Source: a virus (taxonomy: Duplodnaviria > Heunggongvirae > Uroviricota > Caudoviricetes). Taken from it: a DNA stretch of 6,181 bases. The position numbers and the translations under genes are program-made. The notes beneath the pieces are model-generated. The model was not told where the DNA came from. It saw only the letters and a list, made by a program, of their open reading frames with translations, and did no database searches. The DNA lies in IMG/VR virus record IMGVR_UViG_2671180543_000005, one strand, 5' to 3'. Shown here piece after piece: positions 1,054-6,181 of the stretch; position 1 is the stretch's first letter; every line of letters starts with the position of its first letter.

Positions 1054-1683
1054 TCAGCCCCGGCTGGATCCAGTCATCAGGCTCTTTCTTAAAGGGGGAG
1101 TATTGAAATCACGAAGAAGAGCCTCCCGCACCGCAGCATCCATGTCTGCACCACTGGCAAGTGCTTCAATCTCTGCCGCCACCTGCAAATACCCCATGCA
1201 ACGGCCAATGCGTTTCATAACTCTGGTGTTTTCGTCTTTCAGGCATCTGATAGCGAGATTAATAATTTTCAGGCAGTGATGATGCGATGCCCGGACAGGT
1301 TTTCCGTTCTCATAAACGACGAACTCACCCTCTTCACAGGAAACCCTGAAAGGCCGATGGGGTTCCTGGTCTTTATCCGGTGCAGACGCAATAAAATCAC
1401 TTTTATGCTCTTCCTCTCCGGCACTGTTAACCGTAATGACGTACTCAGGCCGCAGGTAAGCCGCCTCTTTTTCTGACAATGCGGCCGGTAAAAACTTTTC
1501 CTGCAAAAACTTCATAAAAGTCTCGTGAGCGACTTTGTGGCAGTAATCGTAAATCGCCGCATAATGCTCATCGCGGCGTTTGTTTTCATCTTCAGAACTC
1601 ACCAACGCCGACAATTTTTTATTAAGCTCAGTGATTTCATTTTCCAGGTGATTGAATCGCTGATTCATTTCTTCATGCTTCAT
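1054..1683 (-). CDS. hypothetical protein (209 aa) between holin and endolysin; family not recognised
   Basis: Longest ORF in the interval. ATG at 1683-1681 lies 3 nt after the stop of the upstream holin copy, with GGGGAGAG 7-8 nt upstream. Predicted N-terminal coiled-coil-like segment (NQRFNHLENEITELNKKLSALV), acidic linker, and C-terminal region with clustered His/Cys (SHHHCLKIINLAIRCLK, GRCMG). No TM segment seen. Function unknown. Confidence 0.6.
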   Translation of the reverse strand: MKHEEMNQRFNHLENEITELNKKLSALVSSEDENKRRDEHYAAIYDYCHKVAHETFMKFLQEKFLPAALSEKEAAYLRPEYVITVNSAGEEEHKSDFIASAPDKDQEPHRPFRVSCEEGEFVVYENGKPVRASHHHCLKIINLAIRCLKDENTRVMKRIGRCMGYLQVAAEIEALASGADMDAAVREALLRDFNTPPLRKSLMTGSSRG

Positions 1684-1686
1684 TAT

Positions 1687-1872
1687 TTACTCTCCCCGTG
1701 CAGCCTTACGCTTGTCTTCTCTTATTTTGAAATACAGATTCGTCAGATAAGTCAGAAGCCCCAGAAGCAGACTTCCCAGCACACCAATCGCAGCCCACTG
1801 TGATGGCCTGACCTGATCCAACCACTGCAAAAACCAGTAGCCGGCACTGCCGGCGGAGGTGCCGTAGGCAAT
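1687..1872 (-). CDS. class II holin (S21-type pinholin), second diverged copy, 5-prime end missing in the N gap
   Basis: Translation [61 protein letters not shown] differs from the intact holin at 1896-2111 by 3 residues. About 16 nucleotide substitutions across roughly 170 aligned nt by eye. Start codon and first ~10 codons are absent because the sequence runs into N at 1873. Confidence 0.6.
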
Positions 1873-1882
1873 NNNNNNNNNN
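1873..1882. other. run of 10 N: assembly/scaffold gap, true length unknown
   Basis: Ten consecutive n characters. Flanking sequence cannot be joined across 10 nt to give an intact gene on either side. Confidence 0.95.
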
Positions 1883-1895
1883 AATGATGGCGACA

Positions 1896-2111
1896 TTATT
1901 CACCTCTCGCAGCCTTACGCTTGTCTTCTCTGATTTTGAAGTACAGATTTGTCAGATAAGTCAGGAAGCCCAGAACCAGACTCCCCAGTACACCAATCGC
2001 AGCCCACTGTGACGGACTGACCTGATCAAGCCACTGTAAAAACCAGTAGCCAGCACTGCCTGCGGAGGTGCCGTAGGCAATGCCCGTTGAAATTTTGTCC
2101 ATGGATTTCAT
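1896..2111 (-). CDS. S: class II holin / pinholin with dual-start motif (phage 21 S-like)
   Basis: 71 aa, [30 protein letters not shown]..., near-identical to phage 21 S / DLP12 EssD as recalled. Met1 and Met4 give the antiholin/holin dual start. Two predicted TM segments and a charged C-terminus. GGAGGTGA 5 nt upstream of the ATG at 2111. Confidence 0.9.
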
Positions 2112-2271
2112 AGCCTCACCTCCGCAAATAACGGATGGCGTAGTTTTACACTGAGAAATGAAAGGGATTTGAAAAGAAAAAAACGCAAAAGCGGGCGAAA
2201 CGATATATACAGTAAGGAAAGCACTCTATCCAACAAACCACCCACAGTTAATCGGAATAAAAGCAGAGTGC

Positions 2272-2344
2272 TTATGAATGATCGCACGCCCGAAGGTTAG
2301 TATTTCTGCACAGCAATTTTGCAAAAAAAGGCGATCATTCATAA
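2272..2344. repeat. perfect 14-bp inverted repeat (TTATGAATGATCGC / GCGATCATTCATAA) with 45-nt spacer, in the holin leader
   Basis: Arms at 2272-2285 and 2331-2344 are exact reverse complements. Each arm contains a GATC. Confidence 0.7.
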
Positions 2345-2351
2345 CTTAAAC

Positions 2352-2397
2352 GTCTTTCAGTCACTCCGGGATTTCCCATCATCGCAGACTGAAAGAC
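2352..2397. repeat. perfect 11-bp inverted repeat (GTCTTTCAGTC / GACTGAAAGAC) with 24-nt loop, just 3-prime of tRNA-Gly
   Basis: Arms at 2352-2362 and 2387-2397 are exact reverse complements. The repeat lies 7 nt beyond the tRNA-Gly 3-prime end on the transcribed strand. Confidence 0.7.
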
Positions 2398-2403
2398 TCT
2401 GAC

Positions 2404-2478
<75 letters not shown>

Positions 2479-2481
2479 ATA

Positions 2482-2557
<76 letters not shown>

Positions 2558-2559
2558 GC

Positions 2560-2636
2560 TGGCCCACCACCGAGGACTCGAACCTCGCACCGTCAACTTA
2601 GAAGGTTGATGCTCTATCCGGATGAGCTAGTGGTGG
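2560..2636 (-). tRNA. tRNA-Arg (anticodon UCU)
   Basis: 77-nt cloverleaf: acceptor CCACCAC/GUGGUGG, D-arm GCUC...GAGC, anticodon stem UCAAC/GUUGA, loop CUUCUAA, T-arm CGAGG-UUCGAGU-CCUCG, CCA encoded. Reads the rare AGA/AGG codons, like the argN/argO-type tRNAs of lambdoid prophages. Confidence 0.8.
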
Positions 2637-2637
2637 T

Positions 2638-2714
2638 TGGTGGCCCTTGCTGGACTTGAACCAGCGACCTGGCGATTATGAGTCGCTCGCTCTGACCAAC
2701 TGAGCTAAAGGGCC
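2638..2714 (-). tRNA. tRNA with CAU anticodon, ileX/ileZ-like (probably tRNA-Ile2, lysidine-modified; could be annotated tRNA-Met)
   Basis: 77-nt cloverleaf: acceptor GGCCCUU/AAGGGCC, anticodon loop CUCAUAA, T-arm GCUGG-UUCAAGU-CCAGC, CCA encoded. Overall sequence resembles E. coli ileX (tRNA-Ile2) as recalled. Confidence 0.75.
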
Positions 2715-2802
2715 GGAGGCAGAATAATAACCATATGTCATCACATCTGCAAACTCATCTGACCACCAGCGTGTTTAACGTCCTGTACCGTTTTTCAGGC
2801 AT

Positions 2803-2824
2803 AAAAAACCCGCCCGGAGGCGGG
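2803..2824 (-). terminator. intrinsic (Rho-independent) terminator, candidate tR-prime of the Q-dependent late transcript
   Basis: On the minus strand: 6-bp GC stem CCCGCC/GGCGGG (2809-2814 with 2819-2824), 4-nt loop, followed by UUUUUU (plus-strand A run 2803-2808). Lies about 90 nt downstream of the Q stop and just upstream of the tRNAs. Confidence 0.55.
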
Positions 2825-2827
2825 TTT

Positions 2828-2913
2828 AAGCTGTGTGGCGAAGCAACCACTCTTAACAGAATATCCCGTTTTTTACGTACGTAAAATATTTTCTAGAAAG
2901 TCGCCCCTTACCA
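2828..2913 (-). promoter_or_regulatory. expected position of the Q-dependent late promoter (pR-prime) and Q-utilisation site; exact -35/-10 not resolved
   Basis: Placed by synteny only: between the Q stop at 2914 and the terminator hairpin. AT-rich, with weak candidate hexamers (TTTTAC, 17 nt, TATTCT on the minus strand). No confident sigma-70 match by eye. Confidence 0.3.
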
Positions 2914-3294
2914 TCAGGGATGTTCAATATATTTGTCCATTTCTAACCGGACACCCAACATCATCAACATTCCTTCCACCACCCCCTCGGCTTTTTGTAG
3001 CTTCTTTCCTATATAACCATCTGAGCATCCATGCTTCCGCGCCAGCGTCATGAATGTCATCCCAAACACGTAGTAGTCAACCAGCAAGTCATGTAGATCG
3101 TTGTTGTTCCGGTTAAGGCGGGCCATACACCCACATATAACCATCGCGTCATCGTCACAGCATTGCGGGCGGGATTTTACTTTTGAAGGGATTAATCCCT
3201 TAAAACCGGCAGCAATGGACGACCAGGTCACATCCTCATGATTATTAGCCACCCACGCGCCCCAGCGCTCAAGAACCTGCTGAATATCACGCAT
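2914..3294 (-). CDS. Q: late-gene antiterminator Q (phage 82 / DLP12 QuuD-like)
   Basis: From [34 protein letters not shown]... the protein closely matches DLP12 QuuD as recalled. Cys cluster [14 protein letters not shown] fits the Q zinc-binding motif. Start placed at the ATG at 3294; the track start at 3330 is a TTG. The 5-prime end overlaps the ninH stop by 8 nt. Confidence 0.85.
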
Positions 3295-3487
3295 CACTGT
3301 CTTTACCCCTGTCCCATCCACGATGAACAATCAGAACACCATCAACAATGGCGTGCCCTTTGCCCTCTTTATCTTCAGCATATTTTCTTACCGTGGCGCG
3401 ATTACAGTTCAGCATTCGTGAAACTTCGGTCATATTACCTCGTGTCTGGATAAGCAGTTCCGGTATCGTTTGAATTTTGACGCTCAT
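3287..3487 (-). CDS. ninH: NinH-like small DNA-binding protein
   Basis: [58 protein letters not shown] resembles lambda NinH as recalled. ATG at 3487 with GGAGAG 6 nt upstream. Sits immediately upstream of Q, as in lambda. Confidence 0.8.
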
Positions 3488-3581
3488 CAAATACTCTCCG
3501 GTTCGGTGATTTTTATCCCGGGCTTTCCACCAGGGACATAATGATCGCGCACAAGCCAGGGCAAAACAAACTCATGGCGCA

Positions 3582-3839
3582 TCAGCGCAGCGCCTCCTGC
3601 ACCAGTTTTTCAAACTTTCCGACTCTGGTTTCCAGCTCTGCCACACAGTCCACCAGCTCATCTACTGCTTTCTGTGCGCGATGCTTCGCCTGCATCAGTT
3701 CCCGAAGCGCGGGTACCATATCTTTACGGATAGCATCTTTTGTTATGCCCGTTTTTTCGAGTTGTTCAGCATGACGCAGCATTTCCTGCGCGTGTTTACG
3801 CAATTGTTCAGGGGTAAAAGTCATTGTCTGGTTGTTCAA
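3582..3839 (-). CDS. hypothetical small helical protein (80-85 aa), nin-region ORF of unknown function
   Basis: ORF immediately after the helicase. A TTG at 3839 overlaps the helicase stop (TTGA) with GGAG 7 nt upstream. The first ATG is at 3824 (80 aa) with no obvious SD, so the start is ambiguous. Predicted all-helical and highly charged. No family recognised. Confidence 0.5.
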   Translation of the reverse strand: MNNQTMTFTPEQLRKHAQEMLRHAEQLEKTGITKDAIRKDMVPALRELMQAKHRAQKAVDELVDCVAELETRVGKFEKLVQEALR

Positions 3840-5227
3840 AAGAAACGCTCCATCTTACTGCTGTCAGTTCGTTTATTACTGTATCTGCGCGGATTGCCGG
3901 GCTTCATGGGAGTGGAAAGCACCCGTGCACTTTCCTGGTCCACAGGCAGAAAATGTCCGTTATAAAAACGCCGGTAAATCGTTCCCAGAGAACCGTTACG
4001 TTGTTTCGTGATATTGATTTCTGCGATGCCCCTGGCCTGCGTATCCGGGTTGTACACTTCATCCCTGTAAAGCATCAGAATGATGTCTGCATCCGCCTCT
4101 ATTTCTCCGGAATTTTTCAGGTCTGAGTTCATGGGACGTTTATTGGGTCTGGACTCCACACCGCGGGAGAGCTGGCTCAGCGCAATCAACGGAAAACCAC
4201 CGGATTTTGCCAGGCCTTTAAGCCCCTTTGAGATTTCACCCACGGCAAGGTCATGACGCCCCGTGGTTCGGTTTTTTATCAGCCCGAGATAATCAACCAC
4301 CACCAGCGCCGTTTCCGGATATTTAATCAGGTGGTGTTTCGTTGTTGCGCATATCTCATCAATGGCCAGGTTCGCCTGGTCCACCATCCAGATATTGCGC
4401 CCGGTCATCCGCCCCACCCCTTGTGAGAAACGCGTCCAGTCTTCATCTTCAAAGTGAGCCACAGATTTCAGGCGTGATACTGGCATCCCTCCAGCCGCAG
4501 ACACCATACGTTCACCAATCTGGATGTTCGCCATCTCCATGGTGAACAGAAGCACACCATGCCCCTGCTCAGTCACCTTGTCGATGATGTCCAGCGCAAG
4601 TTCGGTTTTCCCCATCGAAGGACGGGCGGCAATGAATACCAGGTCTCCGGGCTCCATACCGCCTGTTTTTGCGTCCAGTTCATCAATACCGGTCATCAAC
4701 GTCCTGGATTTCTCCAGCCCCTGATTCCGGCATTCAACACGCTCAACCACTTCCGGAAGCACATCATCAATATGTACCGGCTGAATGACGCCCTTTCCTG
4801 TCGACAGTGTGACCATCATGTTCTGCGCATCCTTCAGGGCATCTTCAGCTGCTTCACAGGTATGCGCATCACGTAATTTCTGCAGCGCCTCATTCAGTGT
4901 TTTTTCTGCATCGCGCAGTGCGGCATTGCGCCGCAACGCTGCAACATAGTGCTCCAGTGAAGACTTCACCCAGGTTTTACGCCCGGTATCAGTAATCACC
5001 GGGGCAAGTTCCGGCATCTCATTACACAACAGCACGGGGTCAATCACTCCTGAAACACGGGCCTGTCTGCAGATGCCTGTATAGATATCCTGATACGCTC
5101 GTACAGAAAAAACGTCCGCTGGCAGTGTGGCCAGAATATCCATCACTTCAGGATCTGCTCCGCGCAGAAAGAACGCGCCGATGACAGCGCCTTCAAGGTC
5201 ATCGTTACGCCATACTGGAGTTGTCAT
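3836..5227 (-). CDS. DnaB-family replicative DNA helicase (phage-encoded)
   Basis: 463 aa. Walker A AARPSMGKT, Walker B-like VVVDYLGLI, and the DnaB C-terminal block SQLSRGVESRPNKRPMNSDLKNSGEIEADADIILMLYRDEVY. ATG at 5227 overlaps the loader stop (ATGA), with GAGGTG 9 nt upstream. Confidence 0.9.
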   Translation of the reverse strand: MTTPVWRNDDLEGAVIGAFFLRGADPEVMDILATLPADVFSVRAYQDIYTGICRQARVSGVIDPVLLCNEMPELAPVITDTGRKTWVKSSLEHYVAALRRNAALRDAEKTLNEALQKLRDAHTCEAAEDALKDAQNMMVTLSTGKGVIQPVHIDDVLPEVVERVECRNQGLEKSRTLMTGIDELDAKTGGMEPGDLVFIAARPSMGKTELALDIIDKVTEQGHGVLLFTMEMANIQIGERMVSAAGGMPVSRLKSVAHFEDEDWTRFSQGVGRMTGRNIWMVDQANLAIDEICATTKHHLIKYPETALVVVDYLGLIKNRTTGRHDLAVGEISKGLKGLAKSGGFPLIALSQLSRGVESRPNKRPMNSDLKNSGEIEADADIILMLYRDEVYNPDTQARGIAEINITKQRNGSLGTIYRRFYNGHFLPVDQESARVLSTPMKPGNPRRYSNKRTDSSKMERFF

Positions 5228-6102
5228 GCAGCCACACCTCTGATACGAGAACGGTAACTGGGCCAGTTAAACGACAACCAGTTGCGTCCCCCGTCTGTGA
5301 TCCTGTCGGCAATTCGGGGACTGATGAACGCCCACAACTCTTCCGGTGAGAGGTTACTGATCAGAATGGTGGGCAAGATACTTTCGTACCTGGCGTTGAT
5401 AATTTCCTGCAAAATAGCCATTTCAGCCGCGCTGCCAAACTGAACGCCAACTTCGTCGATGATCAGCAAATCCATTGACGCATAACGCTCAATAACTTCA
5501 TCCGCTGTTTTTTCGCTGTCATTCCGCCAGCAATTTTTCACAGCACGGGTAAGGCGCATCACGTCGGTGATCTCCACACTGGCCAGATAGTTACGGATGA
5601 TGTGTTTTGCCATAGCCACAGCCAGATGATTTTTTCCGGTACCACAACTGCCGGTCATAACAAGACTGGTACCGTTCTCCAGCATATCTGGCCAGTTCTC
5701 CGCATAGCGGCGACAGGCCGCAAGATTTCTGGCTGCGCCAGGATTAACCTCCAGATAATTATCAAACTCGCAGTCCCGAAAACGCAGGGCAATTCCGGCG
5801 TTATCAGTCAGCTCTTCCGCCTTGATGGACGACAGCTCCATGGTCAAATCGTTGGCCTCAGCGATTAAGCAGTCAGGGCAGCATGAAATTTCTTCTCTGT
5901 CCTCGCCATTACGATCGCTCCACACCAGTATATGCGTGTGATATTCGCCATGTTTTTCGCAATATCCGCGACCTTCACGCATCAGGCAGGAACGATAAGG
6001 CCATGGCTTTTCGCCCTTCTGAGCAAATGCAATCTCTGCCCGTAACTCATCCATTCGCGCCTGTAGTCTTTTTTGTTGTTCACGCAGGTTAAACGTCATC
6101 AT
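5224..6102 (-). CDS. DnaC-like helicase loader (AAA+ ATPase) with N-terminal Cys/His cluster
   Basis: Walker A TGSCGTGKNHLAVAMA, Walker B DLLIIDEVGVQ, and C-terminal FNWPSYRSRIRG matching the E. coli DnaC C-terminus as recalled. Start placed at the ATG-ATG at 6102 with GAGGTGA 6 nt upstream; the track start at 6171 is a GTG in an open frame. N-terminal region has a C-x3-H...CC-x2-C cluster. Confidence 0.85.
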   Translation of the reverse strand: MMTFNLREQQKRLQARMDELRAEIAFAQKGEKPWPYRSCLMREGRGYCEKHGEYHTHILVWSDRNGEDREEISCCPDCLIAEANDLTMELSSIKAEELTDNAGIALRFRDCEFDNYLEVNPGAARNLAACRRYAENWPDMLENGTSLVMTGSCGTGKNHLAVAMAKHIIRNYLASVEITDVMRLTRAVKNCWRNDSEKTADEVIERYASMDLLIIDEVGVQFGSAAEMAILQEIINARYESILPTILISNLSPEELWAFISPRIADRITDGGRNWLSFNWPSYRSRIRGVAA

Positions 6103-6181
6103 CGCTGTCACCTCAGAATGTCTGAAGTGGCACACTGAATTTGGCCACCTGAACAGAGGTGATATGCTCACCTCAGAACAA

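Follow-up and report, generated by a model that had tools for sequence, protein, structure and literature searches.

The 292-bp leader between the transfer RNA (tRNA) array and the holin gene of IMG/VR virus record IMGVR_UViG_2671180543_000005 (Duplodnaviria; Heunggongvirae; Uroviricota; Caudoviricetes), at positions 2112-2403 of the 6,181-nt stretch analyzed here ("the window"), appears on comparative evidence to encode a conserved, structured non-coding RNA, with the perfect inverted repeats of this interval as its helices. The RNA lies on the minus strand, which is the sense of the late transcript and carries all genes of the window, and it is composed of an optional hairpin (A), a 129-nt core in which hairpin B is joined by hairpin C, and a terminator. 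The leader of this lambda-like prophage is 100% identical to the corresponding sequence of E. coli CFSAN029787. Its parts in the window are:

2397-2352, minus strand: hairpin A, containing the 11-bp repeat (I2), with an 11+2 bp stem around a small GGG/CCC hairpin.
2344-2272, minus strand: hairpin B, containing the 14-bp repeat (I1), with a long closing helix around an inner hairpin that bears the near-invariant UUUUUGCAAAAUUGCUGUG and a small CC/GG hairpin.
2273-2219, minus strand: hairpin C, in which an outer helix of 9 bp (repeat I4) encloses the near-invariant GGGUGGUUUGUUGG.
2196-2172, minus strand: the decayed remnant of an intrinsic terminator, GCCCGC-UUUU-GCG-UUUUUUUCUUUU; of the allelic series described below, it is the weakest member.
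2112..2171, minus strand: the 5' untranslated region of the holin gene, with a GGAGG Shine-Dalgarno sequence at 2123-2119.

The two repeats from which the original prediction started are exact. A repeat finder places I1 at 2272-2285 / 2331-2344 (14 nt, 45-nt spacer) and I2 at 2352-2362 / 2387-2397 (11 nt, 24-nt spacer), both 100% complementary, and finds a third perfect repeat, I4, at 2219-2227 / 2265-2273 (9 nt). The expectation that such repeats would rarely arise by chance was also sound: among 2000 dinucleotide-preserving shuffles of 2112-2403, none contained a perfect repeat of at least 14 bp, and 12 contained one of at least 11 bp. I2 had been described as abutting tRNA-Gly, which is not strictly so: the tRNA ends at 2404 and the repeat arm at 2397, and hairpin A begins 6 nt past the CCA end. 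Two checks suggested with the prediction gave positive answers. Folding of the minus-strand RNA (z = -3.3, against -1.9 for the other strand) produced three hairpins that abut one another, and comparison across related prophages found the repeats conserved as helices. The third hairpin, the terminator remnant, the linkage to tRNA-Gly, the promoter motif of the array and the presence of the small RNA STnc100 in this slot elsewhere had all gone unmentioned.

At 95-99% identity, the leader is present in 536 of 5426 complete E. coli genomes (~10%). Pattern scans of IMG/VR returned more than 150 copies with 75 distinct cores, and when a single genome of each species was scanned, the element turned up in Escherichia, Shigella, Enterobacter, Citrobacter, Yokenella, and Phytobacter. 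Hairpin A is seen in a subset of these relatives, as an optional 5' extension; hairpins B and C form the conserved core, and a covariance model built from it (R1) matches the window minus strand at 2345-2217 with 138.2 bits. The copy in HK639 is only 75% identical to that of the window, with paired substitutions that preserve all three stems.

Covariation in the core was evaluated on 37 distinct sequences, for which RNAalifold returned the same helices. Standard pairs filled 97.6% of the paired cells, against 39-51% when the 3' partners were slid by 1-3 columns; two-sided changes were present at 8 pairs, and the observed covariation score was reached by none of 500 shuffles. Helix 1 (hairpin B) has changes on both sides at 5 pairs, with 96.9% of its cells paired, and helix 4 (hairpin C) has 3 compensatory pairs, with 98.6% paired. 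Hairpin A, in 27 distinct versions, behaves similarly: 95.4% of cells pair, against 38-49% when slid, compensatory changes are found at 2 pairs, and at one pair G-U is the commonest state. The substitutions are also strand-specific. Read in the sense direction the core alignment has 188 G-U cells, against 10 A-C cells that would be G-U in the antisense; pairing is 97.6% in sense and 85.9% in antisense, and the covariance model scores the core at 128-148 bits in sense and below 20 bits in antisense. Selection thus maintains the helices as RNA, on the late-sense strand, and this strand specificity excludes an origin of the repeats as DNA palindromes or scars. The outer stems covary, but some 35 nt in the loops and inner helices hardly change over six genera.

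Three explanations for the repeats had originally been offered: RNA processing or stability structures, regulator binding sites, or scars of a cargo insertion or excision. The RNA option stands, in that compensatory and G-U substitutions keep the stems on the minus strand only; the other two gain no support from the comparison, the interval being a conserved module with covariation of its own rather than a leftover junction.

The neighborhood of the element, all on the minus strand and in order of transcription, is as follows:

Upstream genes, from open reading frames (ORFs) and RefSeq: a DnaC-like loader, then a DnaB-type helicase, NinH, and a Q-family antiterminator.
2914-3294, minus strand: the Q-family antiterminator, with the start that RefSeq assigns; the mechanical ORF, at its longest, extends to 3330.
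2826-2803, minus strand: a hairpin followed by a U-tract, from direct reading of the sequence; it fits tR'.
2752-2747 and 2729-2724, minus strand: a sigma-70 promoter motif, -35 TTGCAG and -10 TATTAT, with a 17-nt spacer.
2404..2714, minus strand: a phage array of four tRNAs, namely a CAT-anticodon tRNA (tRNA-Ile in RefSeq), Arg(TCT), Thr(TGT), and Gly(TCC), called by ARAGORN, by Rfam tRNA scores of 56-70 bits, and by RefSeq annotation of the identical stretch.
2111-1896, minus strand: a class II holin with an MKSM dual start, followed by a 209-aa ORF, lysozyme, and spanin.

The context of the element was compared at 110 distinct loci. A tRNA lies directly upstream in 87 of them, almost always Gly(UCC), and the gap from tRNA to core takes one of two forms: 56-59 nt where hairpin A is present, or 0-2 nt where the core is fused to the CCA end. 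The element of the window, with its 6-nt linker, likewise comes directly 3' of the final gene in a multi-tRNA unit, as a trailer does. Loci without a called tRNA often have a decayed tRNA-Gly, or else an ORF followed by hairpin A; because the core persists where tRNA-Gly is decayed or absent, it is kept independently of the tRNA. One tRNA-less clade (L056, L104, L025, L007, L216, and others) has a 38-codon hydrophobic ORF (MGVWKIALILTASLIAGVVIYIDVISDFIADANFLHLP) ending at the 5' edge of the core, and an altered first arm of hairpin B (UUUUUGCGUGAGCGC). In a second sample, 80 prophages anchored on a holin 90-100% identical to that of the window, the core is present in 30, always in sense orientation and ending ~105 nt before the holin start. 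Here the core was found with 30 of 31 arrays that end in Gly(UCC) and with none of 25 that end otherwise.

The promoter motif has a predicted start 2-4 nt before the first tRNA; the promoter scan itself reported the neighboring register, TTTGCA-18-TATTAT. Among 63 distinct upstream sequences that diverge elsewhere, TTGCAx-17-TATTAT/TATCAT is conserved just before the first tRNA, the hexamers being followed by a G+C-rich stretch and then by the tRNA 5' end. In a Shiga toxin (Stx) phage, a tRNA start site has been mapped between tR' and stx2AB (Sy et al. 2020, PMC7547250).

The tRNA genes of these arrays have peculiarities of their own. The second tRNA (2560-2636 in the window, Arg TCT; arrays L007-L298) is built on one conserved scaffold, CCGCCAC...GGTGGCGGACCA, with a hypervariable anticodon loop: Lys(UUU), Arg(UCU), Phe(AAA or GAA), Leu(UAA), and an ochre-reading UUA are all found, and some loops are irregular and could not be named by ARAGORN. 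These variants may be of the anticodon-loop type that phages use against tRNA-cleaving defenses. The tRNA-Gly scaffold (2404-2478 in the window) also occurs almost unchanged with a switched anticodon, UAC (Val) in L083 and UCU (Arg) in L087; in L303 a tRNA called as Glu (UUC) occupies the tRNA-Gly position. A further variant concerns cargo. The interval had been presented as the slot that holds the toxin in Stx phages, here empty, and this does not agree with phi467 (L002), where stxA and stxB, at 3960-5195, lie upstream of tRNA-Thr and tRNA-Gly and the leader is kept at 97.6% identity. This order implies that the toxin cargo sits inside the usual four-tRNA array, where it replaces the first two tRNAs.

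Downstream of the core, a canonical intrinsic terminator is present within at most ~45 nt in 77 of the 110 loci. At least four unrelated hairpin sequences fill this role, and the distance from the core varies from 7 to 43 nt; because the terminators differ between clades while the core is conserved, the core itself is no terminator. Nor do I1 and I2 read as intrinsic terminators, in which a U-tract comes directly after a G+C-rich stem: what follows hairpin A is GUUUAAG, and what follows hairpin B is hairpin C. A terminator scan of 1850-3000 found no terminator-like site, 2172-2196 included. Copies of the window-type terminator form an allelic series of graded G-to-U changes in the 3' arm:

3' arm GCGGGC: 44 copies, -13.5 kcal/mol.
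3' arm GCGGGU: 28 copies, -11.0 kcal/mol.
3' arm GCGGUU: 24 copies, -6.6 kcal/mol.
3' arm GCGUUU, the allele of the window: 11 copies, -3.3 kcal/mol.

The series may represent a tuning of read-through into the holin gene, or it may represent decay.

The order of parts is thus promoter, tRNAs, optional hairpin A, core, terminator, and holin leader. Taking the structure, its strand, the tRNA linkage, the promoter motif and the terminator of the relatives as given, we infer expression and function along the following lines, to which we would assign a probability of roughly 0.55 overall: the element is the 3' trailer RNA of a tRNA operon. In the lysogen, the tRNA promoter would transcribe the tRNAs together with the trailer, and cleavage at the 3' end of tRNA-Gly would free a stable RNA of ~170-250 nt ending at the terminator, which would also shield the holin gene from transcription begun at the tRNA promoter. 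After induction, polymerase modified by Q would read through, and the same structure would become the 5' end of the lysis messenger RNA (mRNA). The freed RNA might then bind a specific partner, either another RNA or a protein (Hfq or ProQ, for instance), and act in trans as a regulator or sponge, as 3'ETS-leuZ and the prophage small RNAs found in this slot elsewhere do; any contacts in trans would be expected to involve AAAUUGCUG or GUGGGUGGUUUGUUGG. We favor a specific partner and a role in trans because the outer stems covary while ~35 nt stay nearly invariant across genera. Taken alone, this last step is tentative, and we would put it at clearly less than even odds.

Several observations weigh against the trailer model or limit what can be built on the conservation. 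Fifty of the 80 prophages with a 90-100% identical holin are without the element, which must therefore be accessory. The linkage to tRNA-Gly could come from shared descent rather than from function. In the window itself the terminator stem is cut to 3 bp, and a discrete 3' end is doubtful there. As to the structure, the inner helices 2 and 5 show wobble changes only, none of them compensatory; diversity is modest, with an effective sequence number of 1.09 for the model, and the compensatory changes mark few clades, so that independent events are few. Retrieval of homologs by pattern also inflates the apparent invariance of both motifs; in a scan anchored at other positions, UUUUUGCAAAAUUGCUGUG and GGGUGGUUUGUUGG were still almost unchanged.

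The main rival possibility, coherent if on the whole unlikely, is that the element acts purely in cis, in the processing or stability of the lysis mRNA. In one version, RNase P and RNase E excise the tRNAs from the Q-antiterminated transcript, leaving the lysis mRNA with a monophosphate end, and hairpins A and B near that end protect it from 5'-end-dependent decay; in another, the hairpins are RNase III sites, as between genes of phage T7. The helices are long and stable, the element is always in sense orientation upstream of lysis cassettes, and, with hairpin A or without it, a hairpin always begins 0-6 nt past the 3' end of the tRNA, although this constant spacing suits the trailer model equally well. 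A stabilizer, however, would need only the stem, yet ~35 nt of loop and inner helix are nearly invariant in six genera; prophages with the same holin and with other tRNA arrays (Asn-Thr, Met-Arg) do without the element, and in most relatives a strong terminator stands between it and the lysis genes. In a different role, the hairpins would be stacked transcription barriers, adding to tR' against read-through from PR' or the tRNA promoter into the lysis genes during lysogeny. In HK639 the stretch from Q to the lysis genes is annotated with four terminators, including one directly past the core, and a terminator follows the core in most relatives; but there is no U-tract after hairpin A, B, or C, the scan of 1850-3000 is empty, and it is the core that is conserved while the terminators are unrelated between clades, all of which makes barriers improbable. 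A leader resembling a T-box, sensing tRNA-Gly and controlling the terminator that follows, would account for a structured leader beside tRNA genes and ahead of a terminator. UUGGAU even holds a GGA codon and a UGGA able to pair with the UCCA end, and the conserved GGGUGGU has what we take to be a resemblance to the T-box core. We regard this as very unlikely: there is no Rfam T-box match at E up to 10, the core motif is unchanged beside Val, Arg, and Glu anticodon variants, and with unrelated terminators at distances of 7-43 nt no conserved antiterminator pairing is possible. A riboswitch-like alternative pairing with the terminator was rejected by inspection for the same reason, the terminators being non-homologous and variably spaced.

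Perfect palindromes adjoining a tRNA gene could be regulator sites, or scars or targets of recombination beside the tRNA 3' end, and mosaic breakpoints do fall at module edges: L024 and L046, for example, diverge just past hairpin C. Neither palindromes nor scars would produce the G-U asymmetry of 188 to 10 or the difference in pairing between sense (97.6%) and antisense (85.9%), nor a hairpin A pair that is commonest as G-U, a mismatch in DNA; the 290-bp module is conserved in 536 of 5426 E. coli genomes, and in phi467 the leader is intact although the phage has toxin cargo, upstream of the tRNAs. There is accordingly very little to recommend a DNA-level origin. A small protein-coding moron is harder still to credit. 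The original prediction had stated that the interval has no ORF longer than a few codons, which is wrong as to mechanical ORFs (59, 43, 38, 33, and 31 aa overlap it) and right in that none is conserved. The 38-aa ORF (2342-2226) and the 59-aa ORF (2287-2108) would be the candidates, and two phage records annotate a hypothetical protein across the stretch; but a search for a conserved ORF across the 75 distinct versions found none, the ATG of the 38-aa ORF being present in 22 and lacking in 53, with lengths from 13 to 43 codons, one-nucleotide indels inside the frame, and stem substitutions that are compensatory rather than synonymous. Hairpin A was also considered as a relic of the T-arm of tRNA-Gly; the similarity is not significant, its score being reached by 509 of 2000 shuffles.

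A further idea, which we consider a long shot, is that the RNA works in partnership with the phage tRNA array and is not a generic small RNA: it could serve as a decoy, sensor, or processing cofactor in counter-defense or translation reprogramming against host nucleases that target tRNA. The basis for this is that it travels with tRNA-Gly(UCC), beside an array that includes a tRNA scaffold with a hypervariable anticodon loop, and that the Gly position is also found with Val, Arg, and Glu anticodons. GOLLD and ROOL are large unexplained RNAs that also lie beside phage tRNAs, and if the partnership were real, the present RNA would be a small enterobacterial parallel to them.

Returning to the trailer model, the question arises whether the RNA belongs to a family already described. 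No family in Rfam 15 matches the leader (2100-2410) at E up to 10. Full-text searches for the conserved motifs returned unrelated papers only, and the literature on prophage tRNA trailers and on HK639 yielded no description of this RNA. Among known RNAs, STnc100/PasD is closest in position and probable kind, and 3'ETS-leuZ in the logic of its biogenesis.

STnc100 is likewise a prophage-encoded small RNA, Hfq-associated and ~200 nt long, in the same slot and orientation. In L153 and L166 (2136-2335) it stands in place of the window-type RNA after a three-tRNA array, ~80 nt past the last tRNA and ~165 nt before a near-identical class II holin. It differs in having no similarity of sequence or structure to the window RNA, and its Rfam model (RF02076, gathering threshold 47 bits) finds no match in the whole window at E up to 1 or in 2100-2410 at E up to 10. 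The two RNAs are found together at a single locus in L062 (STnc100 at 3405-3618), L091 (5797-6009), and L213 (8016-8219), with STnc100 in the same orientation as the core, upstream of it in the first two and downstream in the third. Because they co-occur in this way they are distinct genes; they are positional alternatives, not relatives. L062 and L091 hold a second, partial copy of STnc100. Scores for STnc100 in other loci range from 61 to 140 bits, and those of the full-length genes of the five loci listed from 86 to 140.

3'ETS-leuZ is reportedly the trailer of the chromosomal glyW-cysT-leuZ tRNA operon, and is said to sponge RyhB and RybB. Like the window RNA it lies directly 3' of the last tRNA; it is part of a polycistronic transcript and ends at the operon terminator, as the window RNA would on the trailer model, and release by tRNA 3' processing is the natural route in such an arrangement. 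RNAs of its type are reportedly freed by RNase E, bound by Hfq, and able to pair with small RNAs. It differs in being short and chromosomal, whereas the window RNA has a 129-nt covarying core, is prophage-borne, and lies in a late operon controlled by Q.

Prophage small RNA genes are already known from the region downstream of PR', AgvB and AsxR among them (PMC4104026); PasA, PasC, and PasD adjoin holin-lysozyme genes, and the lambda late operon yields Hfq-dependent RNAs. PasA/PasC and AgvB/AsxR share with the window RNA a location between Q (or cargo) and the holin-lysozyme genes of lambdoid prophages (PMC8550237, PMC4104026, bioRxiv 10.64898/2026.05.13.724894). PasA, however, is on the strand opposite the late operon, whereas the window RNA is sense; AsxR is antisense to the stx2 transcript (PMC4104026); and AgvB and AsxR, RNAs of a kind that forms part of a convergent pair, are 51-60 nt, while the window RNA is much larger. 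Direct comparison gave nothing further: BLAST at word size 7 against PasA, PasC, and PasD1 from the E2348/69 loci produced only chance matches of 11-34 nt, and AgvB/AsxR (RF02702, RF02703), which differ in size and in their convergent arrangement, have no Rfam match here. GcvB shares a 10-mer, GGUCUGCGAU, but the alignment scores fall within those of shuffled sequences (reached by 287 of 500 and 69 of 500). Similarities of the HK639 copy to isrB, istR, and rsmX stay below threshold, at 22-26 bits against gathering thresholds of 35-56, and come mainly from the terminator hairpin.

The put RNAs of HK022 and HK639 are a more distant comparison: they too are cis-encoded structured phage RNAs upstream of terminators, the putL-like RNA of HK639 being 126 nt long, but they lie just past an early promoter, whereas the window RNA follows a tRNA array in the late region. 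Model R1, run with filters off, found nothing at the putL-like feature of HK639, its best match in the 10.6-kb early region having E > 1 and lying elsewhere. Elsewhere in HK639 (L003), at 3338-3410 on the minus strand, between Q and the first terminator, the isrJ model scores 34.6 bits (gathering threshold 37, E = 1e-4), which suggests that IsrJ-type RNAs may be PR'-to-tR' transcripts of lambdoid prophages.

The holin gene that follows the element shows a possible layer of regulation of its own. A perfect 10-bp repeat, I3, allows 2126-2117 (UGCGGAGGUG, the Shine-Dalgarno region) to pair with 2070-2061, corresponding to holin codons 14-17; this pairing is present in most of the holin-anchored relatives, with a variant version in another holin clade. 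The MKSM dual start resembles that of phage 21 S, and the I3 hairpin probably serves in translational control, setting the ratio of holin to antiholin. The 209-aa ORF between holin and lysozyme in the lysis cassette (1054-1683, minus strand) is a hypothetical protein in RefSeq. The holin gene is seen twice in the window (1687-2111), around a gap of 10 Ns at 1873-1882. Positions 58-1872 and 1909-6122 map to overlapping parts of CFSAN029787, with 173 bp represented twice; because the reference has one holin and the mapped parts overlap, this looks like a scaffolding artifact from the joining of overlapping contig ends rather than a real duplication.

The stretch from Q to the lysis genes is where lambda-like prophages carry Shiga toxin and small RNAs that rewire host regulation. 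To this region the present analysis adds an uncatalogued, well-structured RNA family, carried by ~10% of complete E. coli genomes and known from five or more further genera of enterobacteria. On sequence grounds it appears to be a new family of a known sort, a prophage late-region non-coding RNA, with the architecture of a tRNA trailer. The family is now open to modeling and annotation, and can be searched for in existing RNA-seq, Hfq or ProQ crosslinking and immunoprecipitation (CLIP), and RIL-seq (ligation and sequencing of interacting RNAs) data. The series of terminator strengths directly ahead of the holin gene may be a case of how prophages insulate lethal genes. If the trailer model is true, this would be the first prophage RNA made as the trailer of a tRNA operon, and a lysogen could make it without induction of the phage.

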